Notes under the pieces: model-generated
Seen by the model: only the letters and a program-made list of their open reading frames with translations
The model's database searches: none
Told to the model about the DNA's origin: nothing
Program-made: the position numbers and the translations under genes
Shown here: positions 7,048 through 58,051 of the stretch, in pieces
Numbering within the stretch: the stretch's first letter is position 1
Layout of the letters: every line of letters begins with the position of its first letter
Assembly (NCBI GenBank): GCA_019456255.1
Contig: VRUG01000009.1
Span: 20,037-84,036, forward strand
Source: Planctomycetota bacterium
GTDB taxonomy: Bacteria; Planctomycetota; Phycisphaerae; Sedimentisphaerales; Anaerobacaceae
Reading direction: 5' to 3'
DNA: 64,000 nt

Positions 7048-7544
7048 GTATACGCGACATGACTATAGGCGAGATCCGGTCGGCTTATCGTAAAGACCTA
7101 CAGCTTAACAGGTATCGACTAGAAGTAGCGTCAGAAGAACAGGCTACGAAGTTTGAGAAGTGGTATTCTGTAACAGAAGATGTTGCTGCAGATATCGAAG
7201 ATAAAAAAGCGTATTTAGCAGAAGTTAAAGCAAGGGTGGAAGTTGAGATTCGTAGTCTACCTAAACAAGATTTAGAAAAAAAATACCATGTTACGGATCT
7301 TAAAGAGAGTGTGGTTAAATCTCTTGTTGAATTGAATCCTACCGTACAGAAAGTTTCAAAGGAACTTCGTAAGTTAAAATTACTTCATAATAAGTTAAAG
7401 GGAGCAGTTGAGTCTGGTAGACAAAGAAAGTCTATGATTAGAGTTCTAGCAGATTTATATCAAGCAAACTACTGGGACAAAACTAAGATAAAGCAGACTG
7501 GTATTGATAGTATAAGAAGAGATAAAAAGGGTGGAGGAGTCTGA
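7038..7544 (+). CDS. hypothetical coiled-coil protein
   Basis: ATG at 7038 overlaps the nrdJ stop. K/E-rich heptad-like sequence. Confidence 0.5.
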   Translation: MPISIRDMTIGEIRSAYRKDLQLNRYRLEVASEEQATKFEKWYSVTEDVAADIEDKKAYLAEVKARVEVEIRSLPKQDLEKKYHVTDLKESVVKSLVELNPTVQKVSKELRKLKLLHNKLKGAVESGRQRKSMIRVLADLYQANYWDKTKIKQTGIDSIRRDKKGGGV

Positions 7545-7906
7545 TGAAATTTAAAGACTGTTTTGTTGGAGAGGATGGGAATGTTTGGAGGGCTTCGTCT
7601 TTGATTAAAGCCTCGAAAGACTTTGTAGTTTTTTCATTTGATGTGAGTAGTGTTGACCAAAGTGAAATACTAAGGTGGAAGCTAGTTAACCTACACGATT
7701 ATCTTAATCACTCCAGGAGGGTCTATGATGCTAACTTAACAACTCCTATTATTTTGAGATCAGATGGATATATTATGAATGGGTGGCATAGAGTAATTAA
7801 AGCCTTGTACTTAAAGGTAAAGTATTTACCAGCAAAACAGTTTAAGGTAGATTTAGAACCAGACTTTTCAGTGGAGGACAGTTGCAGTGAAGAGGAAAGC
7901 ATCTAA
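7544..7906 (+). CDS. ParB-like N-terminal (nuclease/CTPase-fold) domain protein
   Basis: 120 aa. PIILRSDGYIMNGWHRVIKA matches the ParB/Srx DGxHR core. Confidence 0.5.
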   Translation: MKFKDCFVGEDGNVWRASSLIKASKDFVVFSFDVSSVDQSEILRWKLVNLHDYLNHSRRVYDANLTTPIILRSDGYIMNGWHRVIKALYLKVKYLPAKQFKVDLEPDFSVEDSCSEEESI

Positions 7907-43010: not shown

Positions 43011-43371
43011 GAGAACCCGTATTAGCGACTATTATGTTAAGCCAGAAGGCGTAGTCAGTCTTTACGAAACAATGTTGCTTAACACAATTAACGACTACTT
43101 CTTTTACTCTAGAGGTTCCGTTGAACACAACGCTGCTAAATACTGGTTGTTTTACGAAGACAGCATAAGCGATGTAATGAGTCTTAATATGGTATGTATA
43201 GTTCTTAGTATTGATAAGGACAAGCTACGAGTCGCGTTACATGTAAAGAGAGACACTGGGAAGATGCGACGGTTATTAAAGACTGAATTTGGAATTCTTT
43301 TATCTACTTGTGAAAATTTAGTGTTAAGGGAATCAAACTTTCAAATACAATGGGATGGAGATGGTTATTAG
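42982..43371 (+). CDS. hypothetical protein
   Basis: 129 aa. Confidence 0.4.
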   Translation: MRLLVKSQPKRTRISDYYVKPEGVVSLYETMLLNTINDYFFYSRGSVEHNAAKYWLFYEDSISDVMSLNMVCIVLSIDKDKLRVALHVKRDTGKMRRLLKTEFGILLSTCENLVLRESNFQIQWDGDGY

Positions 43372-43855
43372 AACGAAAAAGTTGAAGCGAAGTTCGGTTA
43401 CTTTTACTGGTGAAATGGAAGAAGTAGCCCAAAGAATACGTTCTGGTTTTTCCCCAGAAGAAGTAGCGATTTCACTTGACATTCCTGCCGATAGGGTTCT
43501 AGCTTATTTAGAAGATAGGTTAGTGCAGGAAAGAATCAGACATCTACTTGGGGACAAGTTTGAGCGATGGTCAAAATTAAGAGACAGACTTTATGAAGAG
43601 TGTCTTAGTACGAGTATAAGGCTTGTTAGAGACGGGAAGATATCATGGCCGTATATGGAAAAAATGCTTGATAGACTAGAAGCAAGTTATGGTATTTTTA
43701 AAAAGGTGTCCGAGAAAAGACAGATTTCTAAAGAAACAACTCCTTTAATACCAGATGGAAGCGGTGGAATCTTCAAAACTAAAGAAGTTCATACTCATGA
43801 AGTAACTGACGTCCATACTGGTGACATTCGTACTGAGAAGAAGCAGGAGGATTAA
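43355..43855 (+). CDS. hypothetical protein with HTH-like segment
   Basis: 166 aa. EEVAQRIRSGFSPEEVAISLDIPADRV resembles a helix-turn-helix. Confidence 0.4.
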   Translation: MEMVIRTKKLKRSSVTFTGEMEEVAQRIRSGFSPEEVAISLDIPADRVLAYLEDRLVQERIRHLLGDKFERWSKLRDRLYEECLSTSIRLVRDGKISWPYMEKMLDRLEASYGIFKKVSEKRQISKETTPLIPDGSGGIFKTKEVHTHEVTDVHTGDIRTEKKQED

Positions 43856-45145: not shown

Positions 45146-45484
45146 ATGACGAAACGAAAAAAGTTTAACAAGGCAAGGACAATCGAGTTGCATGACGATT
45201 TATGGGACTGGTGTTCTCGTAACCCAACGAAAGAGAAGTCTGACTGGCCTGAATGGAAAAAGAACGGTGGGAAGATCCCAGAAGTAGAATGTGAATGTTT
45301 CTTATGTGAATGGGTAAGAGACAGTTATAAAGAGAGTTGTGTAGAGAAATGTCCCCTTAAGTGGTCATCAAAAAATGGACGTTGCAATTCGTTAGATGGA
45401 GAGTTCCATATGTGGGAAAATGCAAAGACTTTAAAACTAAAGAGGAAGTACGCTAGACTTATTAGAGACTTACCAGAAAGGTAG
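45146..45484 (+). CDS. Cys-rich hypothetical protein (tandem paralog A)
   Basis: 112 aa. Shares W.W....PTK.K.DWP.WK.NGG.IP......CFLCEWV...C..KCP..WSS..G.CN...GEF.MWE.AKT..LK.KYA.LIRDLPER with the next gene. Confidence 0.55.
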   Translation: MTKRKKFNKARTIELHDDLWDWCSRNPTKEKSDWPEWKKNGGKIPEVECECFLCEWVRDSYKESCVEKCPLKWSSKNGRCNSLDGEFHMWENAKTLKLKRKYARLIRDLPER

Positions 45485-45498
45485 TATAGGAGGGCGAA

Positions 45499-45894
45499 AT
45501 GAGAAGGCGAAGAAGTAAAGGGTTAGCGATAGCGTTGTTTAGAGAGCAGTGGGATTGGCACTTTCATCATCCTACGAAATTTAAAACAGATTGGCCTAGA
45601 TGGAAGTCAAATGGAGGAGACATTCCAGACGCAGAGAACGATTGTTTCTTATGCGAGTGGGTGTCGTCAACTAAGCCAAATGATGACTTGTGTCAAGTGA
45701 AATGTCCGGTTATCTGGTCTTCATCTAGTGGGCATTGTAATGCTGTAGGACGTGGTATGCCAGAAGGAGAGTTCTGTATGTGGGAGCGTGCAAAGACTCC
45801 AAGGCTAAAGAAGAAGTATGCTAAGCTAATAAGAGACTTACCAGAGAGGCCTCCTATAAGCAAGAGTAAGTCGAGTAGAGGTGTAAGGGCTTAG
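45499..45894 (+). CDS. Cys-rich hypothetical protein (tandem paralog B)
   Basis: 131 aa, paralog of 45146..45484. The RBS region gtataggag.gcgaa is also duplicated. Confidence 0.55.
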   Translation: MRRRRSKGLAIALFREQWDWHFHHPTKFKTDWPRWKSNGGDIPDAENDCFLCEWVSSTKPNDDLCQVKCPVIWSSSSGHCNAVGRGMPEGEFCMWERAKTPRLKKKYAKLIRDLPERPPISKSKSSRGVRA

Positions 45895-46099
45895 TATAGG
45901 AGCGCGAAGAAGGCCTCATGAGATAGAGTACATGTAAGTAGAACAGACAGTCCTAGAGAGTCTCCTTGGATAGTATAGTAGTAGAGAGAGATGGAGAGAG
46001 TATGATGTTATATGTATGTTTGGGAGATGTAGGAGTGGAGAGGGAAATTAGAGAATTGAGACGACTCTATAACCGTACTCTCCTGTTTCACTCGCACAC

Positions 46100-46350
46100 G
46101 TCACGTGTCGACGTCGAGTCGTGTGTAACGACGTTAGCCAGTCGACTGCTAGTAGCGACGTTGTCTTATCGACTAATACTAGTGTCAACAGTGGTTCTAA
46201 CTGATCGACTAGTCGACGCTACACGAGTACTACTAGCAGTCGATTATTACTATCAGTCGTACCGACTAGTAGTAGCGACGTTGACGTGTGCGACTAGTCG
46301 ACTACTAGCAGTCGTATCGACTAGTAGTAGCGACGTAGAGCAGTCGACGA
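46100..46350. repeat. dense array of direct and inverted short repeats (iteron-like; candidate origin, pac or operator region)
   Basis: The 21-mer cgact(a/g)(g/c)tagtagcgacgt(t/a)g occurs at 46143, 46263 and 46318. Its half-site in inverted orientation (actactagcagtcg) occurs at 46229 and 46301. The perfect palindrome cgactagtcg occurs at 46206 and 46291. There are five GTCGAC sites. G-rich then A/T-rich tracts follow (46360-46490). Confidence 0.75.
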
Positions 46351-46495
46351 CTCAACGAGCCGATGGGGGCGGCCCTGTCCGTTATAAGCGAAATCGTTTT
46401 TCATTTGGGCGTGGGAGGGGGGATGCGATTTACAATACCAAAAAAAAATCTAAAAATTTCCCAAAAAAGATTATATAAAAATTCGAGGTTCTACT

Positions 46496-46774
46496 ATGAA
46501 GTACATACACTACATGCGAGAAGGTACAGAGTACAGGAATGGTATAAACTACAACTTCAAGTCAAGTCCGCTTATTGTCAGAGTAGCACTTTTTGTTAGG
46601 TATAAGCGTACTGCTATTAAACTTAGGTTGTGGTTCGACCGTAGTTTTCGAAAACCCCACGTTTCTATCTACGCCGGGTCTTACAAAAACACGTGGTCGT
46701 ACAGTAGGGAACGTTACTTACGCCTCAGTAATGGTTTCTGTTGGTATACTCGTAAATGGAGTTATAAATTCTAA
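46496..46774 (+). CDS. hypothetical very basic/aromatic protein
   Basis: 92-aa ORF, R/K/Y/W-rich, with a weak RBS (gagg). Coding status is uncertain. Confidence 0.3.
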   Translation: MKYIHYMREGTEYRNGINYNFKSSPLIVRVALFVRYKRTAIKLRLWFDRSFRKPHVSIYAGSYKNTWSYSRERYLRLSNGFCWYTRKWSYKF

Positions 46775-46791
46775 AAAAATGAGGTAAAACT

Positions 46792-46983
46792 ATGTGTGAT
46801 CAATGCAAAAAAGTATGCGATGATGATTGTAGGAACTGTAAAATCGAATGTTCACGTAGAAGCAGTATATGTCCTCATTGTGGAGTAACGATACTGCATA
46901 ACGTCTTCGCGCGTGGTTGCCCCACGAAACAGGAAAAAAACGTTGGTAGACATATGGGTTTCACATTCGAGACGAAAAGGTAA
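46792..46983 (+). CDS. Cys-rich zinc-finger mini-protein
   Basis: 63 aa with CDQC..C...C.NC..EC...CPHC. Confidence 0.4.
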   Translation: MCDQCKKVCDDDCRNCKIECSRRSSICPHCGVTILHNVFARGCPTKQEKNVGRHMGFTFETKR

Positions 46984-47637: not shown

Positions 47638-48261
47638 ATGCAGAAGAAAGCTGGAAGAAAAACAAGGAACGTCGCATTGAAAGGGAAAGAAGACGTCAAA
47701 CTAAACTCCATAACTAAAGTCTGTAAAGTCTGTGAAAAGGAAAAAGACGCCTTGTCTGAATTCCATAAGCAGAAAGGCGGGAAGTATGGAGTTCGGAGCC
47801 TATGTAAAGTGTGCGCGTGTAATAGTAGACGCGCACACTACGACGCTAATTCGGACTTGTATAAAACCGAGCCATACAGGGTAAAGCAGAGGAAAATATA
47901 CAAGAATTATTACCAGCGTCATAGGGAAAGACTAGTAGAGAGAAGTCATACTGAACATAGACGTAAAATAAACTTAAAAGCAACTAGAAAGTACGCAGTA
48001 GAACATTCTGAAAGGATACGTAAAAGTAGCCGCGAACGTGGTGGAGGGTATCGTAAAGATCTGGCAAATAACTACGTTAGATTGCTAATTCGTGTCTCTA
48101 CTGGTGTAGAAAACTCTAGGATTACCCCAGAAATGGTAAAACTAAAGCGAGATCAGGTAACAATACGTCGGGAAGTTACAAAAGCCAGGAGGGTTCTATA
48201 TGGCGTTAATCAAACAGGAAATAGACGAGTTAAGAGATCTGCTAAAAAAGTACAACAATAA
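47638..48261 (+). CDS. basic zinc-finger protein
   Basis: 207 aa with CKVCEKEK..L.EF......G....CKVC and an R/K-rich tail. A 44-aa basic ORF with a strong RBS (47546-47680) overlaps its start. Confidence 0.45.
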   Translation: MQKKAGRKTRNVALKGKEDVKLNSITKVCKVCEKEKDALSEFHKQKGGKYGVRSLCKVCACNSRRAHYDANSDLYKTEPYRVKQRKIYKNYYQRHRERLVERSHTEHRRKINLKATRKYAVEHSERIRKSSRERGGGYRKDLANNYVRLLIRVSTGVENSRITPEMVKLKRDQVTIRREVTKARRVLYGVNQTGNRRVKRSAKKVQQ

Positions 48262-48800: not shown

Positions 48801-49045
48801 TGAAAAATAACATACGGAAAAAACTAATACACTGCCTTCGAAATCCAAGTAGAATACACGTTATATCTGCAAGAAGTAAGTGGTCGGTAAGGCGAGAAAC
48901 TAGTAAGAGAGCTATCAAAATAGTTTCTTCTAGAGAAAGTGCCGTTCAAGTTGCTTTACTAGCTAAAGACTGGACTACGATCGTTGTTCACGACGTAAAC
49001 GGCGAAACCGATTTTCGAACAGTAAAGGAGTACGTTCTGAGATGA
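48800..49045 (+). CDS. DUF2188-like protein
   Basis: [34 protein letters not shown]...IVVHDVNGE fits the DUF2188 pattern. TAATG-coupled. Confidence 0.4.
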
Positions 49046-50895
49046 AGAAAGTTACTCCAGTACCAAGAAGAAAAAAAATCCCACAAAAGAAAGTCATACC
49101 TAGTCAAAAGTTCTTAGATCAGACTAGTCATTTACCTCCAGATGACGTGTGTGTTGAGGCGCTATGTTATTACATCAAAAATAGACGGTATCCAAGTGAT
49201 TGGTTCGAGTTACCTATAGAATCTGATACTGGGTTTACGTACTTCGGAGAAATATTCGCCGAAAGTTTTGATAGAAGGTATAGAGTTAAGAATTGCCACG
49301 AAGAGTTGTTTCAATGCTTAATAGAAAACGGCATCGAAGATAGAGCGGTTTTATATTGGTATATCACTGAATTCCTTAACTTAAATATTCCAAGGCAAAG
49401 AACATGTGAGTTGTTTAATCCGGATAAACACGAGGCAGACTATCCTCATTGTTCTCCCTTCGATTTAGTAGCGGACATGTTCTTTGAGGAGGTAAGGAAC
49501 GTTATAGTTTTCGCGAATAGAACTGGCGGGAAAACGACTAATGTAGCAGTGTTAAATCACTTAGATATGGCATTTAAAGGCGGTTGTGAGGTTGCCAGTG
49601 CTGGAGCTATTAAAGAGCAAGCAAATAAGGTTTACAAGTACTTTTTGGGGTTTCATAAGAACTCGACTCTAAGTAGTTTGTATGAGAGGATTCCTACGAA
49701 ATCTAAGACGATCTACACCAATCACTCAGAACAGGAAGTTATTACTGGAACCGTGACTGGTTTGAATTCTCCTCATCCCCAGAAAGTGCGGTTAGATGAG
49801 GTTGAGTTGATTGAATGGGACGTAATCCAAGAAGCACATAGTATGAGTATGAGTAAAGAGGGAATTACTGGTCAAAACCTGTTTCTTAGTACTAGAAAGT
49901 ACGACTCCGGAACCTTTCAGAGACTACTTGAAGAAGCCGACGATACTGGAATGGTCGTTTATTCTTGGTGTATATGGGAAATCTTAGAGAAGTGCACTTT
50001 CGATTGTAAGGAAAAGACTGAAGACGAGTGCCCAGTTTGGGGTAAACCAGTAGTCTGTAGAGGGATGGCGCATAGCTGTACTGGGTACTACAAGATAGAA
50101 GACTTTATCGACAAAGTCAGAATGTTAAATAAGGACGTTCTAGACGCTCAATGGTTCAACAAGAAGCCTAGTACTGAGTTTTTAGTCTATGGAAAAAATT
50201 GGAATAAAGGAGTTCATTACGTTCCCGACGTTCAGTCAATAGATTTTAGTGAACATACAATAACAATGAGCTCTGTTGACTTTGGAAGTAGTCCTGGTCA
50301 TCCCTTTGTGTACCAGAAGGCCATAGTTGATTTTGCTGACGTTGTTAGGGCGATAGAAGAGGTCGATGAAACTGTTGAGGAGTTAAAATTCAAGTTGAAG
50401 TTTGCTATCTACTACGAATATAGGTCTGCTAGTAGTACTATGGCGAATCATTCCCAGATGATAAAGAACAGTCCAGATTATAAGAAGGGAGAAATAATAT
50501 TTGCTGATCCCTCTGCTAAACAGGCAAGAATAGACCTTGACATGATCTATAATATAGAGACGTATTCTGCAGTAAATGCGTTAGAAGATGGAATTGATGT
50601 TGTCAGAGCTCATTTAGATACGTACTTTGATTATGGAGATGGCGCGAAAGAGAAGAGTTATTACTATATAATAGACAGGTATCTCGATTCAGACTTACCT
50701 GGTACCGAAATCGAATTTGAAAAGTACAAGTATCCGCGTGGTATTGACGGAAAACCTATTAGAAGAAAACCTATCCCTATGGATGACCACGGGCTTGATT
50801 GTTCGCGGTACATTATCCAGTCTGCTTATCATATTATTTTAGAAATAGCTTATCCTGAACAAGAAAATGTAGAAGAGTCTGGTTACTGGTTTTAA
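49042..50895 (+). CDS. terL: terminase large subunit
   Basis: 617 aa. ANRTGGKTT (Walker A), [10 protein letters not shown] (Walker B), FADPSA and [10 protein letters not shown] nuclease-domain acidic motifs. Lies immediately upstream of the portal gene. Confidence 0.8.
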
Positions 50896-50978: not shown

Positions 50979-52523
50979 ATGTTTGACATATGGAGGCTTA
51001 AACGTAAGTTAGTTAGAGAGAACCTTGAGTTTGAAACTAATCAATTAGCAGTCGCTAATTCAACTCTTGAAAACGCTCTTGAGGCTAGTAGAAGAGTCCA
51101 AGAGGAACCTGACCATAATATGTGGTTCCAACATGGACAAGGAAGTGATATTGGAACTGGGACGAGTTTGTTGAGCTCCGGTTTTAGTAAATACGACCAT
51201 TACCAGATGCTTGACGAGTCTTGGAGGCAGTACCATACAAACTTGTTTGCTAGGGCCGTTGTCAGAAATCTTGGTAAGTTTATTTTGGGAAGGGGTCCAA
51301 CAATTAAACCAGTTTCTAAGAATGTAAAGGTAATGGAGAAGTGGAATGAGTTCGTGATGGACAACGCTTGGTCTCTTAGGGAGAAGGAATTAGTAAATCG
51401 AGTTTTCCGAGACGGAGAAGTATTCCTCAGATTTTTTGTAGACGAAAATAATGGCAAGATCAAAACTAGGTTTATTAGAGCCCAGACCGTCAGGAACCCG
51501 CCTAGTAGTTCTGAATGGAATAAGGGGGAAGTCGTTTCTTTTGGTGTCGGAACTAATCCCGACGACGTAGAAGAGCCATTAACTTACTATATATGTAATC
51601 CTATGGATGGTAGTTTAAAAGAAAAGATTGATGCCAAAGACGTTTTGCATATTAAGATACTTACGGATTCCGATATGAAGAGGGGAATTAGTTTTCTCTT
51701 AATTGCACTTCCAATGTTAGGTAAGTACTCTAGTTGGCTTGATGATAGGGTTATACTTAACAAAACTAGGTCTGCTATTGCTCTTATAAAGACGATAGAA
51801 GGGAATAGTGGAGTCGTTACTAATATCCGAGATAATCAGCGAGCAGAGACCCAGGATTTTGACAAGAACAAGTTGAAGGCCTTTCGCCCTGGAACCGTCT
51901 TGACTGCTACTAAGGGGATAACTTACGACATGTTGTCCCCGAAGATAAATGCAGCAGACGTGAAAGACGATGGGCGGTCAATGTTGCTAGCAGTAGCAGC
52001 GGGGTGTGGACTGCCTGAGATGATGCTAACGGCCGACTACAGTAATGCGAATTACTCGAGTAGTATGATAGCTCAGAATCCTTTTGTTAGAGAAGTAGAA
52101 GATTGGCAAGACTTCTTTGCGTATCCCTATAAACTTACTTTTGCTCGAGTTATTCAAGCTAATATCGACTTTGGTGAATTGCCAGAGAACGAAGAAACTG
52201 GGTGTGAGGTTGAGTTCCCTCCTCTTATTACTGCAGATACCCTTAAGAACAATAAAGCAAGAGAAATACAACATAAGAATAAAATTATTTCTAAAAAAAC
52301 TTGGCAAATGAAAGAGGGATTAGATCCAGAGACAGAAGAAGATAATATGGGTGACGAACAAGATAAAGACATTTACAAGACCCCATTTAACATGCCTACC
52401 GAGCCAGTCAACCAGTTTGGTGCTGAGGATGATGAGGTAGACGAGGAGCTTGAGGATGATGAAGAGTATGATGAATTAGAGGATGAAGAAGTAGATCCTG
52501 ATGAAGAAGACGAGCCTGAATAA
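50979..52523 (+). CDS. portal protein
   Basis: 514 aa, positioned between terL and the MuF-like gene. Strongly acidic C-terminal tail. Confidence 0.7.
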   Translation: MFDIWRLKRKLVRENLEFETNQLAVANSTLENALEASRRVQEEPDHNMWFQHGQGSDIGTGTSLLSSGFSKYDHYQMLDESWRQYHTNLFARAVVRNLGKFILGRGPTIKPVSKNVKVMEKWNEFVMDNAWSLREKELVNRVFRDGEVFLRFFVDENNGKIKTRFIRAQTVRNPPSSSEWNKGEVVSFGVGTNPDDVEEPLTYYICNPMDGSLKEKIDAKDVLHIKILTDSDMKRGISFLLIALPMLGKYSSWLDDRVILNKTRSAIALIKTIEGNSGVVTNIRDNQRAETQDFDKNKLKAFRPGTVLTATKGITYDMLSPKINAADVKDDGRSMLLAVAAGCGLPEMMLTADYSNANYSSSMIAQNPFVREVEDWQDFFAYPYKLTFARVIQANIDFGELPENEETGCEVEFPPLITADTLKNNKAREIQHKNKIISKKTWQMKEGLDPETEEDNMGDEQDKDIYKTPFNMPTEPVNQFGAEDDEVDEELEDDEEYDELEDEEVDPDEEDEPE

Positions 52524-55500
52524 TGGCTGCTGTAAATTCTGAGCTTCGCGATTTAATATTAAAGAGACAACACTACATTCAGTCTTTTGAGAATGGTAGT
52601 ATACGTGACATTGCTGCCCACTACGATGCTGCTAAACCTGCCCTTGTTACACAACTTGCCCGCCTGCAATCCTTTGAAGAAAGATCTGGCCTTGTACAAC
52701 CTACCTTGCAATTCAGAATGAATCGTCTTAATGCTCAAATTAACGAGATAGACGTTGTTGTAAAATCTGCTAATAGGGGTGCGATAAATTCCCTTACTAG
52801 CGACTTAGAAGGATTTGCTAGATTAGAGAAGGGACATTACGAAGGTCTCTTAGGTGCCCAGTTTGGAGCAATAGGAGTGAACATTGTTAGGATTCCTTTT
52901 GAACACGTAGACCGGATGGTTAGGACTCCACTTGGTGGACTTGTCTACAATGAACGAATGTTCAACACTTATAGAAGCGCCATGACGGAAATGAAGAGTG
53001 AACTAACTCAGTCTTTGATCTTAGGCGAAGATATGGCAAAGGCGTCGAGGCGATTAGTAGGAGTTGGTGATAGATTTGGTGGGACGGTTGGGAGGAAGTT
53101 AAAAGAGAGGGCGGAGGTAATAGCAAGGACTGAAATAATTAGAGTTAGCAATGAAGTTAGTTCTGGTATTTACGACGCTAATACAGATGTCCTTAAAGGT
53201 ATGCAATACATAGCAACCTTGGATAATCGTACATGTTTAGTATGTGCTAGAAGTGATGGGAAAGTTTTCTACTTTAACAAGAACCCAATAAGTCAAGGGG
53301 AGAAGCCAACAAGACATCCAAGGTGTAGATGTTCGCTTATGCCTGTTTCTAAGACGTGGAAAGAGTTAGGCGCAGATATGCAAGAACCTCTAGAGGGTGG
53401 TAGACCTTTTGTTTACAAAGGAAAACCTCCACCTGGGTTAAGTAAAAGGATGTTACAGTTCCGTGGAAACCCTACACGTTGGTCTGGCCAAGTTCCAGCG
53501 TCGCTTAAATACCCAGATTGGTTAAAAGCAATGGATATTGACGACCCAGAGTTTGTTCGTGATATCCTTGGTAATAAGAAGTACGGGTTGTGGCGGAGTG
53601 GAAAAGTCCAACTTAAAGAGATGGCTAAGAACAATAAGGTTCTTACGCTAAAACAACTTGACGACTTAGTTGGCGGCCAGTACGTTTATGGTCCTCCTTT
53701 AGCAAAGGCTCCAATAGGTGCTACCAGACAAGTAGAGTGGGAAATAGCAAAGAAGAACCTTGACGATTACATGGACTACATGAGGGGTTTAAAGACTACT
53801 AGAATAGATCCAGCAGATATTACTGGTGCCCAGATTGACGAACTAATAAGTACTGTTAAGGGTGGCCCTAAACTTACTACTCATAGGTTTTTAAAAGGAT
53901 TAAGAGAAAAAGAAAGAGGTGCTGCTAAAAAACTTGGAAAGAAAGTTCCCGAACCTAAAGTAGTAGTACCTAAAGCTACAAAAGTTACTCCACCATCCTT
54001 CGTAGAGAAAGAATTAAAGAAAGAAGCGGCAAAGAAGTCTAAAGCGTTAGAAAAAGTTGAAGAGGAAATTGGTGTTGAAAATGAGGTAACTAGTTACTTG
54101 ACTGGGGAAATCGAATTTATGGAGAGAAGGTTAAAGGCAAGTGATGTGGATCTTGACATAAAAGTAAATATTGAAAAAGAGCTTGCTGGCTACAAAAAGG
54201 TAATTAAAAGCAGAGACGACTACGACATTGCTTACAACAACTATGTAGCGGTACTTAGTGAAGATGCTTATAAAAAAGAACGAAGGAATCTATTTAAGTC
54301 AATTGTTGATGTTGAAGACATTGAAGATGAAGTAGAGGCACGTAGGTTACTTAATCTAATAGTTGATGAGACTAGTTATATTCCAGCTGACTTGTTAGCT
54401 GACATGAAAACTCACTCAAAACTTAGATTTGAGATTTTAGACGAGACTGGTCGTGCTAATTTCGATCCGACTGGGGGAGAACCACTTAAAATTTCTTTGT
54501 TTACTAAAAGGGATGTAACTGGAAAGTGGGACTTGGAAGCTCCGTCGCATGAACTTGCCCATGCTATAGACAATCATTTTAGTGGTACTAACGGAAGTGT
54601 TGGGATGGAATGGCAGACTGGTAAATTTGTTGCTTCCAAAGAAGGAGATGATATACGTAAATGGTTTGACGGTCATAAAACTGGTAAAATTGGAGAGTAT
54701 GAAAATGGAGATGGTGAATTTTGGAGAGATAATTGGATAGATGATTACGAAGGTAGATACTACGATGACGTTGATGGAGATGGAGTAGAATGGTGGTCTG
54801 TAAACGTGCACCGGTACCAGGGGTACTTATCTGAAAAAAGGTCACTTACGAAAAAACTTTTAGATGAAGTTGATCCTTCTGATAAAAGTTTTCTTGCGTT
54901 AGTTAAAAAAGTAGACGACGAAGCCCTTAAGTCTACGGAGTGGGGAAAAGCTAAAAACTTTTATCCAAATCTTACAAAACATATTGAGAAAAAGTTTGAT
55001 CCTGAAAAAAGGTTCATGTCCTTTATACCAGGGAAGGTTACAAAGAAGGTAGTACCACCAGTAGTGAAGCCACCTCTTAAGGTCGTAAAAAAGAAGGTAG
55101 TACCGAAAAAAGTAGTAGTGCCTACTCCTACGCCTACGGGAATAGTTGCACCTCCTCAACAAGTTTTTGATTCTTTAGACTTTGTGCGCGATTTAATATT
55201 ATCTGGTGGAAAACCAAATAAGAAAGTTTTTGATCTGGTTACTAGTGCTGGTGTTGACTGGTTGGATCAAACTGTGACTAAAGGTACGTATAGGTTGTAT
55301 CGTGGGATTGGTCTAATTGAGGATAGGTTAACTGCTTCTCAGATTAGAATTGTTAACTCTTTAAAAGATGGCGACGAACTTCCAAGTTTTTTATTTAAAC
55401 AACACGTTAATGTCGCTTCTTATACTAAAAAGAAATCTCTAGCGAAGTCTTATTCGGAAGGTAAGATGCAAATTGTAGTAGAAGTTGACGCCCCTAGTGG

Positions 55501-58051
55501 AAAAGTTTTAGTCGACTTAGAAAATTTACCAGATCTTCTTAAGAAGTCGAAGCTTAAGAAAAGTCTGTTTGAACCAACAACTCCCTTTGATTCAGATGAT
55601 TTTGGATACCTGAAAGCTGACAAAGAGGTTTTCCTTCTTGAACCTGTAAAAGCTAGGATTATATCTATAAAGGGTAAGTTAAACCCTAAACACGTAGATG
55701 TTGGCGTTCTCGTTCCAAAAGTGGATAAACTCGTTCTTACAAAGAAGGTTGTAGCTAAACCGTTAGCCGTACCCCAGAAAATTCAAGCACCTTCTCCTAA
55801 AAAGTTAAAGAAAGCGATTAAGGGTAGCCCTGAAGCTGTTGCTATAAAAGCAGGTAAAGACCTTAGAGCCTATAAGAGAAGGATGAAAACGTCTATTAAT
55901 GTTGATATTAATAAGATGAAAGACGGGCAAATTAGAGCGTTAATACGTAGTACTAAGGGTGGCCCTAAACTTAATATGCTTAAAAAGTTCATTAAGTTAA
56001 GAAAGGTAGAGAGAGATGCTTTGGCGAAAGTTGGAAAGAAAGCTTTAGTGACGAAAAAGCTAGTACCTACTAAGAAGGTTGTTAAGAAAGTAAAAAAGGT
56101 TGCTGTTAAACCTGTAGTAGGGACAGAACCAGTACAGCTACAAAAAGAACTTAAAGGTATTATGAGTAGGATTAAAGAGATAGGAAAAACTATATCAGAC
56201 CAAGGTGGAGTTATTGACGCAAAATCTATAAAAGCTTTTATTAAAGAAGATCGTTTATTTCAACAACAATATCAAAGTTCCATGAAGGGGTATTTAGATC
56301 AGATAAAGAACAAAAAATTGTGGATGGAATGGAAGAAGATTCAAGATAGAAGATTAATAATTGTAAAGAAACTGAAACCTGCGATTACTCCTGAAAAGTT
56401 TGTTAAAGCAGTAAAGTTAAATTTTGTGAAAGAGATAAAACCAGTACGTAAAAAAGGTATACCTAATAAGAGAACTCTTCCTAGCTCTACTTCTAGTATT
56501 AAAGCTAAACAGATTCGGTCAAACAGTAAAAAGGCGGAAGCTAAGTTCCTAAGGGACTTAGATGTAAAATACGATAAACTTATAGAAGATGCTAAGCAGT
56601 TTACTGAAACGAGAAGGGACGCGCCAACTGATCAACTTAGAGATTATGTAAACAAGTTTACTGGAAATTCGTACTCAAAACCTGAAATTGAAAGGTTAAA
56701 GAAAACGTACCTTGCTTACCGAGACGATGTACTTAAAGCTCGGAAAACTAACTTTTATGTACAAGAAGACATGGTATTTAAAGGTCCTTGGGTATTCCCA
56801 AACGGGACGACTGGGTTTATTCAAATAGACGATGCTGAACTGTACAGGTTATTTAGCCAAGGCAGACACAAAGAGGTTAAGATAATTTCAGACGCAGACG
56901 CTGCGTTTGGAGATATTGGTGAGACCTTAAAGATTTCTAAAAAGACTGGTTGGTATAAATACCAACAAGACGTTCGTGTATCTGAAGCATTTGAGAATTT
57001 TTATCGTCCAGAAAGAGAAAAGCTAATCGAAAAGACAACTGAAATTGTTAATAGAAGATTAGAGAAGAAAAACGCGTTCTATACTTCTAAACGACAAGTT
57101 GCTCTCGAATTCAATACTGGCAATAACGCTAAAGACGCTAGTAATTATATAACTAGCCTTGACATGGATGTACAAGACTCTATTAGAAGATATACTAATG
57201 GGTCAGACGTAGACGTAAATGGTAATCTGAGATTTGGAAAGAAGATTACTGGTGGAGAAAGCGGAGATAAGTTAATAAATGAGAGAGTTTTTACTGATTT
57301 AGATGAAATTTTTGCTAGAGCTCCACATTATGAGGGAAAATCTTACCGGGGAGCTGTTTATAGCCAAAGTGAAGTTGATGAGTTGGAGCGACTGGCAAAA
57401 TCTAATGGAGTGATGACAGACAATGGGTTTATGTCTACGTCTGCCGGTAGAGAAGAAGCGGCAGCATTTGCAATTGATGTTGAAAAGGTAGTTAAAGGAA
57501 GAGACATTCCTGTTTTATTTGAAATAGAAGGAAAAAGTGGTTTTTACCTTGAATCGATGACTGACTTTGCTGGAGAGAGGGAAGTTTTATTTAACCGATC
57601 TACTTCGTTTAAAGTTAAAGGTTTCAGGTCTGGAAAAATTGCTATGGAAGATGGACCTAGGGTAGCGGCTAAGATAGTTAAACTTGAAGAGGTAACTAAG
57701 AAAGTCAAAATTGAAGCTCCGCCAGTAAAGATTAGTATACCATCGAAAGTGGTTAAGAAGGTTGTACCTAAAAAGGCAATACCTAAAAGACTGTCTAGCG
57801 ATGCAAAGTGGTTGGAAGACAAAGGGCAAAAAGAGTGGGGAAGTATTAAACGTATGGTGGTCAAGAAACTTAAAGGTTTGGGAGAGCCATCAGACGAGAT
57901 TGAGGAAGAGGAAGAGTTAGATAACGTTTCTCTAACTCAACTTAACTACATCAAAAAGTTTGTAGGTAAAAAGACTCCAGAGGCTAGGGCACTTTCGAAG
58001 ATTATTAAAATAAGAAGAGCTTTAAGAAAGTTAAGTAAGTTAAGGAGGTAA
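52523..58051 (+). CDS. MuF/SPP1-gp7-family head morphogenesis domain fused to a giant polyvalent protein (HExxH motif, degenerate and canonical ADP-ribosyltransferase domains)
   Basis: 1842 aa. The MuF core is ARTEI.R......L...ATLD.RTC..C...DGKV......P..HP.CRC (to about 53350). HELAH lies at 54548-54562. An ART-like YRG/ASYT/DKE region spans about 55298-55627. A C-terminal ART has YRG (57344), STS (57434) and ERE (57575-57583). K/V/P-rich linkers and about 70-aa internal repeats (STVKGGPKL / STKGGPKL) are present. Confidence 0.75.
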   Translation: MAAVNSELRDLILKRQHYIQSFENGSIRDIAAHYDAAKPALVTQLARLQSFEERSGLVQPTLQFRMNRLNAQINEIDVVVKSANRGAINSLTSDLEGFARLEKGHYEGLLGAQFGAIGVNIVRIPFEHVDRMVRTPLGGLVYNERMFNTYRSAMTEMKSELTQSLILGEDMAKASRRLVGVGDRFGGTVGRKLKERAEVIARTEIIRVSNEVSSGIYDANTDVLKGMQYIATLDNRTCLVCARSDGKVFYFNKNPISQGEKPTRHPRCRCSLMPVSKTWKELGADMQEPLEGGRPFVYKGKPPPGLSKRMLQFRGNPTRWSGQVPASLKYPDWLKAMDIDDPEFVRDILGNKKYGLWRSGKVQLKEMAKNNKVLTLKQLDDLVGGQYVYGPPLAKAPIGATRQVEWEIAKKNLDDYMDYMRGLKTTRIDPADITGAQIDELISTVKGGPKLTTHRFLKGLREKERGAAKKLGKKVPEPKVVVPKATKVTPPSFVEKELKKEAAKKSKALEKVEEEIGVENEVTSYLTGEIEFMERRLKASDVDLDIKVNIEKELAGYKKVIKSRDDYDIAYNNYVAVLSEDAYKKERRNLFKSIVDVEDIEDEVEARRLLNLIVDETSYIPADLLADMKTHSKLRFEILDETGRANFDPTGGEPLKISLFTKRDVTGKWDLEAPSHELAHAIDNHFSGTNGSVGMEWQTGKFVASKEGDDIRKWFDGHKTGKIGEYENGDGEFWRDNWIDDYEGRYYDDVDGDGVEWWSVNVHRYQGYLSEKRSLTKKLLDEVDPSDKSFLALVKKVDDEALKSTEWGKAKNFYPNLTKHIEKKFDPEKRFMSFIPGKVTKKVVPPVVKPPLKVVKKKVVPKKVVVPTPTPTGIVAPPQQVFDSLDFVRDLILSGGKPNKKVFDLVTSAGVDWLDQTVTKGTYRLYRGIGLIEDRLTASQIRIVNSLKDGDELPSFLFKQHVNVASYTKKKSLAKSYSEGKMQIVVEVDAPSGKVLVDLENLPDLLKKSKLKKSLFEPTTPFDSDDFGYLKADKEVFLLEPVKARIISIKGKLNPKHVDVGVLVPKVDKLVLTKKVVAKPLAVPQKIQAPSPKKLKKAIKGSPEAVAIKAGKDLRAYKRRMKTSINVDINKMKDGQIRALIRSTKGGPKLNMLKKFIKLRKVERDALAKVGKKALVTKKLVPTKKVVKKVKKVAVKPVVGTEPVQLQKELKGIMSRIKEIGKTISDQGGVIDAKSIKAFIKEDRLFQQQYQSSMKGYLDQIKNKKLWMEWKKIQDRRLIIVKKLKPAITPEKFVKAVKLNFVKEIKPVRKKGIPNKRTLPSSTSSIKAKQIRSNSKKAEAKFLRDLDVKYDKLIEDAKQFTETRRDAPTDQLRDYVNKFTGNSYSKPEIERLKKTYLAYRDDVLKARKTNFYVQEDMVFKGPWVFPNGTTGFIQIDDAELYRLFSQGRHKEVKIISDADAAFGDIGETLKISKKTGWYKYQQDVRVSEAFENFYRPEREKLIEKTTEIVNRRLEKKNAFYTSKRQVALEFNTGNNAKDASNYITSLDMDVQDSIRRYTNGSDVDVNGNLRFGKKITGGESGDKLINERVFTDLDEIFARAPHYEGKSYRGAVYSQSEVDELERLAKSNGVMTDNGFMSTSAGREEAAAFAIDVEKVVKGRDIPVLFEIEGKSGFYLESMTDFAGEREVLFNRSTSFKVKGFRSGKIAMEDGPRVAAKIVKLEEVTKKVKIEAPPVKISIPSKVVKKVVPKKAIPKRLSSDAKWLEDKGQKEWGSIKRMVVKKLKGLGEPSDEIEEEEELDNVSLTQLNYIKKFVGKKTPEARALSKIIKIRRALRKLSKLRR

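Follow-up and report, generated by a model that had tools for sequence, protein, structure and literature searches.

A field of paired CGACT motifs inside an open reading frame upstream of the large terminase gene of an uncultivated sediment phage

At the replication origin of phage lambda, four dyad-symmetric iterons and an AT-rich tract lie inside gene O; the iterons are regularly spaced units of 18-19 bp in the initiator's own gene, beside the helicase loader gene P. In phage P1 the pac site lies inside pacA, where clustered short palindromic hexamers flank the cleavage site, and it works via Dam methylation of the GATC-containing hexamers. The pac region of phages SPP1 and SF6 (pacL-pacC-pacR), whose small terminase is G1P, extends over several hundred bp and combines several short-repeat sets (boxA, boxB and boxC) with intrinsically bent DNA (PMC4737164). 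Here we describe a field of CGACT motifs, repeated in both orientations, in a 64,000-nt window (bases 20037-84036) of C340, a contig of 111,222 bp within a 4.07-Mb metagenome-assembled genome of a Planctomycetota bacterium. We take C340 to be a large tailed phage that was binned with the bacterial genome, because it encodes a portal, a MuF-fusion head protein, a large terminase (TerL), a ribonucleotide reductase, a primase-helicase and a family A DNA polymerase (PolA). Coordinates are those of the window unless they are labelled with C340 or with the name of another contig (L0xx).

A sequence-only reading of the window had proposed that the field is a cis-acting DNA site, be it an origin, a packaging site or an operator. 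As a class this remains the best explanation, and we give a cis-acting site for protein assembly on DNA a probability of roughly 0.6 to 0.7. The more specific reading that we prefer, a lineage-specific packaging-recognition site of the pac type, combined with a late promoter and lying inside an open frame, is tentative (about 0.3). According to this proposal the field would offer no fewer than 16 CGACT half-sites, arrayed as palindromic pairs on double-stranded DNA, for the assembly of multiple copies of a DNA-binding protein that is symmetric or ring-shaped. The neighboring A-tracts would be intrinsically bendable and easily melted, and the field would serve the terminase as the recognition site for the start of packaging, possibly joined with the promoter of the late operon as in SPP1.

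Anatomy of the repeat field and its gap

The field occupies the middle of a 601-nt gap between a stop codon at 45894 and an ATG at 46496, in which a leader remnant, a C-free tract, the symmetric field, a G-rich block and an A-tract block follow one another in that order (Table 1). The sequence-only reading had considered this the only sizeable non-coding region. No other gap in the window is as large, but elsewhere in the phage, at C340 107171-107928, there is one of 758 nt.

The basic unit of the field is the pentamer CGACT/AGTCG, present 16 times within 46080-46360, with eight copies in each orientation. A core recurring seven times had been reported; the recurrence was evident, but the core had to be redefined as this shorter unit. 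Thirteen of the 16 cores stand in palindromic pairs (seven pairings, the AGTCG at 46296 being used by two), and three pair types occur: AGTCGACT, CGACTAGTCG, and AGTCG-N3-CGACT with its constant 3-bp spacer. Superimposed on the pairs are three direct 21-mers, at 46143, 46263 and 46318, with 86-100% mutual identity; their start-to-start spacings of 120 and 55 bp show neither regularity nor helical phasing. The inverted 14-mer ACTACTAGCAGTCG is found at 46229 and 46301, and a third, degenerate one at 46246; CGACTAGTCG lies at 46206 and 46291. The other elements of the field are palindromic pairs at irregular distances. GTCGAC is found five times (46107, 46141, 46212, 46297 and 46343), as compared to 16 times in the entire 111-kb contig. 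All of the repeats, palindromes, GTCGAC sites, G-runs and the A/T tract that had been listed from inspection were found in place. The two palindromes described as perfect are so as 10-mers, while the extension to 12 bp is perfect at 46205 and matches at 11 of 12 positions at 46290. The local GC enrichment judged by eye was likewise borne out, with 49.8% in the field against 39.4% for the contig. The base composition of the field is symmetric between the strands although the mean GC skew of the genome is +0.22.

We counted repeated 9-mers in the field and compared the counts with those in 2000 dinucleotide shuffles. The field holds 58 direct and 45 inverted repeats, whereas the shuffles gave a mean of 2.9 and a maximum of 22 direct repeats and a mean of 6.1 and a maximum of 32 inverted repeats, and none of the 2000 reached the observed values. 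The window of highest repeat density and the window of highest CpG content of the whole contig both fall in the field, and a search for the 13-mer and the 21-mer across the contig returned no copy outside it. The repeat content is thus far from chance and the field is real. No tRNA, CRISPR or tandem array was found in it.

The compartments on either side are also unusual in composition. The C-free run of 96 nt is the longest in the 111-kb contig, the runner-up measuring 70 nt. On the other side of the field, G-runs at 46407-46422 are followed by an A/T tract at 46437-46480. The A-tract segment, which is separated from the last repeat by approximately 100 bp and the G-rich block, contains the 40-mer that ranks second in the contig for AT content, and is in the top 0.16% for duplex instability. 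Its A-runs (46440-46483) are spaced by approximately 10-11 bp, about one helical turn, and DNA with such a pattern is predicted to be intrinsically bent. A weak sigma-70-like match, TTTACA-17-AAAAAT, lies at 46429-46457; it agrees with the consensus at 9 of 12 positions, and the number of such matches equals that expected from shuffled sequence. A search for promoter motifs across the phage produced no motif that takes in this site. A pair of terminal inverted repeats of the kind found in miniature inverted-repeat transposable elements (45928-45944 with 46488-46504, 76% complementary) was considered and rejected, being at chance level for a region of this size.

The open reading frame through the field

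An open reading frame (ORF) runs through the whole field. It has 170 codons from its first TTG and 158 amino acids from the ATG at 46002, which is preceded at 5 nt by GGAG, and its stop codon lies 17 nt before the next gene. The sequence-only reading had dismissed this ORF as a translation artefact of the repeats, a view that the stop-codon statistics contradict. Within the span of the ORF its own frame has no stop codon, while the other two plus-strand frames have 21 and 10, an off-frame stop density like that of ordinary genes. In total 173 codons are open, whereas in 5000 dinucleotide shuffles of the gap the longest open frame averaged 55 codons, with a maximum of 131, and not one reached 170. 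On the minus strand of the gap the longest open frame has 56 codons, and when only the field is considered, the minus-strand frames have 7, 3 and 13 stops as opposed to none in the frame of the ORF. Even when clustered stops are counted as single events, we estimate the chance of such an open frame at about 1e-4 to 1e-3. The frame is not a chance by-product of the repeats.

The codons in the frame are not those of the phage's other genes. The codon score of the ORF is -0.04, against a median of 0.26, and is the second lowest among all plus-strand ORFs. CGA, CTA, TCG, ACG and GCG are 3-8 times commoner in it than in the other genes, with CGA making up 50% of the arginine codons (6% elsewhere) and CTA 50% of the leucine codons (11% elsewhere). 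The same repeat is translated in different frames, for example as RLVVAT and as STSSSD. Only the self-match was returned when the product was searched against 5.8 billion clustered proteins and in a full HMMER scan of 1.84 billion representatives, and neither Pfam nor PHROG gave a match. AlphaFold models made from the single sequence were mutually inconsistent, with a mean predicted local distance difference test score (pLDDT) ranging from 66 down to 30.

These data bear on the simplest alternative, that the frame encodes a plain ORFan protein of 158 amino acids with repetitive L/V/A/T/S/R segments and a basic C-terminal tail, the DNA repeats being by-products of internal duplication. An ORFan would explain why the frame is longer than in any shuffle, with gene-like stops in the other frames, why a ribosome-binding sequence and a closely following gene flank it, and why a gene caller annotated it. 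However, rare codons dominate the frame, homologs are missing from both protein databases, the repeat copies are read in different frames and the structural models disagree; moreover, coding duplications do not yield inverted repeats or perfect palindromes. We therefore regard a plain ORFan as improbable. Our own reading of the sequence is that selection has probably kept the frame open and that the nucleotide pattern, rather than the protein, shapes it. By analogy with pac sites and the lambda origin, which lie inside genes, the frame may be translated; alternatively, stop codons may have been selected against so that a long one-directional transcript escapes premature termination. The pac site of phage P22 is one such site inside a gene (PMC9611059).

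It is also conceivable that the field and the ORF form a self-contained, dual-coded cassette. The ORFan would then be written nearly throughout in a self-complementary 8-nt grammar (TCGACTAG and its derivatives), and its helical, basic-tailed product would bind its own coding DNA or transcript. The whole would be a portable recognition module, specific to the lineage, that serves packaging or replication and can be gained and lost between phages that are otherwise syntenic. We consider this a long shot.

Since the repeats are complementary to one another, we also considered their folding as RNA. The segment 46060-46430 has a minimum free energy of -147 kcal/mol (z = -4.0), with two hairpins (stems of 11-13 bp, loops of 3 nt) and possible long-range helices of 12-14 bp, and it is almost certainly transcribed, the surrounding genes all being on the plus strand. 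This might suggest that the field acts as a structured element (an RNase III processing site, a signal for antitermination or an insulator, for example) in a polycistronic transcript. However, the complementary strand folds as well (z = -4.1). The long-range complementary pairs are perfect over 10-14 bp and contain no G-T pairs, so that the helices would be free of G-U pairing, and mismatches show no bias towards the plus strand. Rfam gave no match at the gathering threshold and only a spurious mir-21 at E values up to 10, and there are no homologs in which covariation could appear. An open frame accessible to ribosomes also runs through the field. An RNA element is accordingly very improbable to us. 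Perfect complementarity without wobble pairs, together with the strand-symmetric composition, is better explained by identical sites on duplex DNA placed in two orientations, and a function as duplex DNA is favored.

Candidate roles of the field

A protein search followed by contig look-ups identified three syntenic relatives (L023, L025 and L027), whose TerL proteins are 52-56% identical to that of C340 and which share the gene order NeuB, radical SAM, small genes, TerL, portal and MuF. The stretch from the radical SAM gene to TerL is highly variable among them. Neither the field nor any nucleotide similarity to it was present in these relatives. Scans of viral, metagenome and genome contig collections based on TerL recovered short or non-syntenic loci only, and exact and degenerate motif scans of viral contigs gave no match. 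In 400 genomes of the host's order only chance single motif matches were seen, fewer than in the reversed control. BLAST against phage and plasmid records returned no match, and within the genome itself only the self-match. Since motif and field are absent from the relatives and from all collections searched, the element is specific to this phage lineage.

This lineage specificity might suggest a neutral or selfish by-product, namely a young and functionless self-complementary expansion of TCGACTAG by slippage or hairpin-mediated duplication. The copies are near-identical, as a recent origin would predict, and the truncated duplicate of an upstream gene leader that precedes the field indicates a locus with a history of duplication. 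Against this, the rest of the phage genome is compact, its 111 kb containing just 13 gaps of at least 120 nt, and neutral expansion leaves the open frame and the ordered compartments unexplained; the presence of the same sequence in two samples of one study points weakly in the same direction. We give a functionless expansion little credence.

The start of packaging is the likeliest job for the field because it stands where the late block begins and because the one conserved protein of the region that combines a helix-turn-helix (HTH) with a helical hairpin is encoded 2.2 kb upstream. That protein, of 166 amino acids, is a weakly identified candidate for the small terminase (TerS); TerL follows 2.7 kb downstream of the field, with small genes in between. 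An endonuclease-like gene between the field and TerL, and the position of the A-tract among the least stable spots of the genome, also support a role in packaging, as do the repeated elements and the bend predicted from the sequence.

Like the field, the SPP1/SF6 pac region lies at the head of the packaging operon, overlaps a promoter and is partly within an open frame (PMC4737164), although the promoter of the present locus is a weak predicted match. SPP1 also resembles this phage in having a MuF/gp7-type head protein. The SPP1 boxes, however, are direct repeats, and pac overlaps terS, whereas the field consists mostly of palindromic pairs, its ORF has neither TerS features nor homologs, and the candidate TerS and TerL lie 2.2 kb upstream and 2.7 kb downstream of it.

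Other packaging sites show further likenesses. The cosB site of lambda and cos sites of the HK97 type have recognition repeats in both orientations and a bend beside the packaging genes, and an HNH endonuclease gene lies beside the terminase genes; the gene between the field and TerL is HNH/endonuclease VII-like, although this assignment is weak (PHROG E values of 1e-7 to 1e-6). HNH proteins reportedly take part in cos cleavage, as Kala et al. are said to have found in 2014. Unlike cos, however, the locus has a different gene order and no identifiable cohesive-end site, and cos has 3-4 repeats as compared to 16 half-sites. P1 pac shares with the field many copies of a short palindromic motif at one locus, in an open frame upstream of packaging genes. 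In contrast to P1, no N6/N4 methyltransferase gene was found on the contig, and a methylation switch was rejected; to our knowledge, the motifs TCGA, CTAG and GTCGAC of the field are not methylation switches.

Several observations weigh against a packaging site. An equivalent element was not found in the three syntenic relatives. Nine small genes lie between the field and TerL, and the candidate TerS is not adjacent but 2.2 kb distant; its assignment comes from a model with a mean pLDDT of 67 and Foldseek E values of about 0.1. For small terminases that form rings, a preference for repeats in a single orientation would be expected, while palindromic pairs suit classical dimers better. TerL had no match to a Pfam or PHROG family, so that the packaging strategy cannot be read from it. 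Nor do read assemblies point to a terminus: one Logan contig of SRR8799001 ends inside the field at 46285 and the next starts at 46258, an overlap of 28 nt, and these ends were rejected as termini. They are breaks due to low coverage, because another contig pair of SRR8799001 is separated by a gap of 145 nt.

A replication origin was the layout that the sequence-only reading considered classic here. Symmetric repeats would bind an initiator, or the purine tract and G-runs would give rise to an R-loop primer, and the A-tract would be the unwinding element. As at the lambda origin, internally dyad-symmetric repeats are followed by an AT-rich tract within an open frame, and few sites in the genome are as AT-rich as the A-tract. 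With the 96-nt C-free tract and GGGCGTGGGAGGGGGG lying on the non-template strand, stable RNA:DNA hybrids would be expected, and a replisome with a T7-gp4-like primase-helicase and PolA can start from transcripts. The classic layout was not supported, however. The 21-mers are spaced irregularly and out of phase, unlike the lambda iterons, and the ORF is too small for a DNA-binding domain beside the repeats. There is no initiator-like gene nearby, and the replication genes lie at least 25 kb upstream. The flanking proteins gave no match to replication families, and the replication module contains a cluster of sites that are just as AT-rich.

The raw cumulative GC skew is monotonic along the contig. 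After detrending, its maximum falls at 46060 and represents a bump of the C-free tract on a plateau spanning 30-60 kb, which is gone when third codon positions are used; beyond this local bump there is no inflection. The sequence-only reading had named four findings that would count against its proposal. Two of the four were made, since the field is absent from the relatives and the skew has no inflection. We consider an origin unlikely.

The third function to be weighed is an operator array or late-gene switch, in which a dimeric regulator (the Cys-rich paralogs encoded upstream or the 166-amino-acid HTH protein) would bind the palindromic pairs and activate or repress a late promoter in the A-tract. 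The perfect 12-bp palindromes and the 30-bp inverted repeats with their constant 3-bp spacer are what classical dimer sites look like, the promoter-like sequence with its upstream A-runs lies directly downstream of the field, the field sits exactly on a module boundary, and the 166-amino-acid protein has a LuxR-like HTH. Yet 16 half-sites over 280 bp far exceed what known late activators use, the promoter match is at shuffle expectation and belongs to no phage-wide motif, and operators do not normally lie within an open frame. A link between the field and the upstream Cys-rich paralogs was not supported: their homologs in other phages start replication modules and have no adjoining repeat fields. 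An operator array therefore seems doubtful.

Two further candidates were rejected. None of the 43 matches of the genome to the tyrosine integrase family PF00589 is on C340, which speaks against an attP site, and no ParB_N (PF02195) match was found on C340, which speaks against a parS centromere, a search that did not extend to ParA-type genes.

The phage and its gene neighborhood

The phage contig has a GC content of 39.4%, compared to 43.8% for the remaining bin, and its genes are almost all on the plus strand. By eye, from the translations, a T7-gp4-like primase-helicase and PolA can be recognized within the first ~22 kb of C340. Identical phage sequence is present in the assemblies of two samples (SAMN11268109 and SAMN11268106) that are cited in papers on marine subsurface sediment. 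The ends of C340 showed no terminal overlap when compared, and the phage genome is not closed. At both ends (L022:1-153 and L021:11216-11222), Logan contigs assembled independently from SRR8799001 stop at exactly the same point. The start lies inside one ORF and the end 7 nt into another; the ends were rejected as genome termini and taken as an assembly break, since the start is inside an ORF. The gene at the ends, where all assemblers break, may be hypervariable or hard to assemble.

The 758-nt gap mentioned above (L021:7171-7928), the largest non-coding gap of the phage, lies outside the window between a minus-strand gene that resembles a FEN/5'-3' exonuclease by eye and early genes on the plus strand. 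It carries several short direct repeats, including two copies each of GGGGAAAAACC and AAAG.GT..ATATGGGGTC, and is likely a divergent early control region or a further origin candidate.

The field marks a junction, with metabolic and lysis genes upstream and the small genes, TerL, portal and MuF downstream. Features of the gap and of the surrounding genes are collected in Table 1.

Table 1. Coordinates of the features of the 601-nt gap, the repeat field and neighboring genes
Feature	Position	Strand	Description
166-aa protein	43355..43855	+	In all three syntenic relatives; N-terminal HTH, then long helical hairpin; candidate TerS or late regulator
Gap start	45895..45965	+	Truncated third copy of the leader (TAGTATAGGAGCGCGAA) shared by the two Cys-rich paralog genes upstream (45146-45894), then ATG AGA TAG
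C-free tract	45966..46061	+	96 nt without C, purine-rich, many GGA/GGAG
ORF	45966..46478	+	170 codons from first TTG; 158 aa from ATG 46002; spans the field
Repeat field	46080..46360	both orientations	281 nt, each base ~25%, 32 CpG, 16 CGACT/AGTCG cores (8 + 8)
Direct 21-mer, copy 1	46143..46163	+	CGACTGCTAGTAGCGACGTTG; nt 1-13 perfectly complementary to the copies at 46230 and 46302
Perfect 12-bp palindrome	46205..46216		TCGACTAGTCGA; extends CGACTAGTCG at 46206
Composite unit	46229..46283		Inverted 14-mer (46229), degenerate inverted 14-mer (46246), 3-nt spacer, 21-mer copy 2 (46263-46283)
Second 12-bp palindrome, 11/12	46290..46301		GCGACTAGTCGA; overlaps AGTCGACT at 46296-46303
Composite unit	46301..46338		Inverted 14-mer, TAT spacer, 21-mer copy 3; jointly a 30-bp imperfect inverted repeat
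G-rich segment	46361..46425	+	65 nt, 42% G; contains GGGGGCGG and GGGCGTGGGAGGGGGG
A-tract segment	46426..46495	+	70 nt, 50% A, 77% AT; GAGG precedes ATG at 46496
207-aa Cys-rich protein	47638..48261	+	Between field and TerL; PHROG endonuclease/endonuclease VII matches, E 1e-7 to 1e-6
TerL (large terminase)	49042..50895	+	2.7 kb downstream of field
Portal gene	50979..52523		After TerL
MuF-fusion protein gene	52523..58051		After portal

Besides TerL and portal, the 166-amino-acid protein alone is common to all three relatives within the variable stretch, where its copies are 26-41% identical to that of C340. The predicted structure comprises a three-helix HTH, a helix of 38 residues, a second helix and a disordered tail, with a pLDDT of about 90 in the HTH. 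Among its weak Foldseek matches are LuxR/GerE-type HTH domains and PDB 2AO9, which we take to be a nonameric putative small terminase. The model makes the protein a candidate, as an HTH with a helical hairpin is typical of small terminases and equally compatible with a late regulator. The 207-amino-acid Cys-rich protein had no Pfam match; its PHROG matches suggest that it is possibly an HNH-type nuclease acting with the terminase. TerL has more than 140 metagenomic homologs, some of them bearing inteins, and no Pfam, PHROG or PDB sequence match, for which reason a deduction of the packaging strategy from its class was dropped. Its sequence places it in a divergent terminase lineage.

Two genes just 3' of the field (46496-46983) encode a very basic and aromatic protein of 92 amino acids and a Cys-rich protein of 63 amino acids. 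Their codon scores are very low (0.05 and -0.02), and the larger protein has a weak homolog at a different position in L027, with 36% identity over 53 amino acids.

Positions equivalent to that of the field were inspected in two of the relatives. In L025, a 27-nt direct repeat, TGGGATTGAATGGAATCAACAAGGGAT, occurs twice at 7505-7562, with a 12-mer core present three times, in a gap of 128 nt located 2.4 kb upstream of TerL; its sequence is unrelated to the field, its position is similar, and a G-rich, C-poor stretch follows. As an analogous site it is at most a hint. The corresponding gap of L023 (7318-7420) has a tRNA-like stretch, GCGGGG...GGTTCAATTCC...CCCCGCAACC, that neither ARAGORN nor Rfam called, and a normal tRNA-Gly lies at L023:4651-4726.

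The field adds a non-conserved member to a well-known class of phage elements. Repeat fields of this general type abound in phages, and given also its lack of conservation we do not expect this one to bring a new principle to light. What is unusual about it is that the frame through it stays open; if our reading of that frame is true, it would be one more case of a cis-acting DNA site inside a selectively open frame. In this lineage, the terminase and most of the nearby proteins match no described family, and if the field is a packaging site or an origin it would provide a handle on a large, uncultivated phage lineage of subseafloor sediment.

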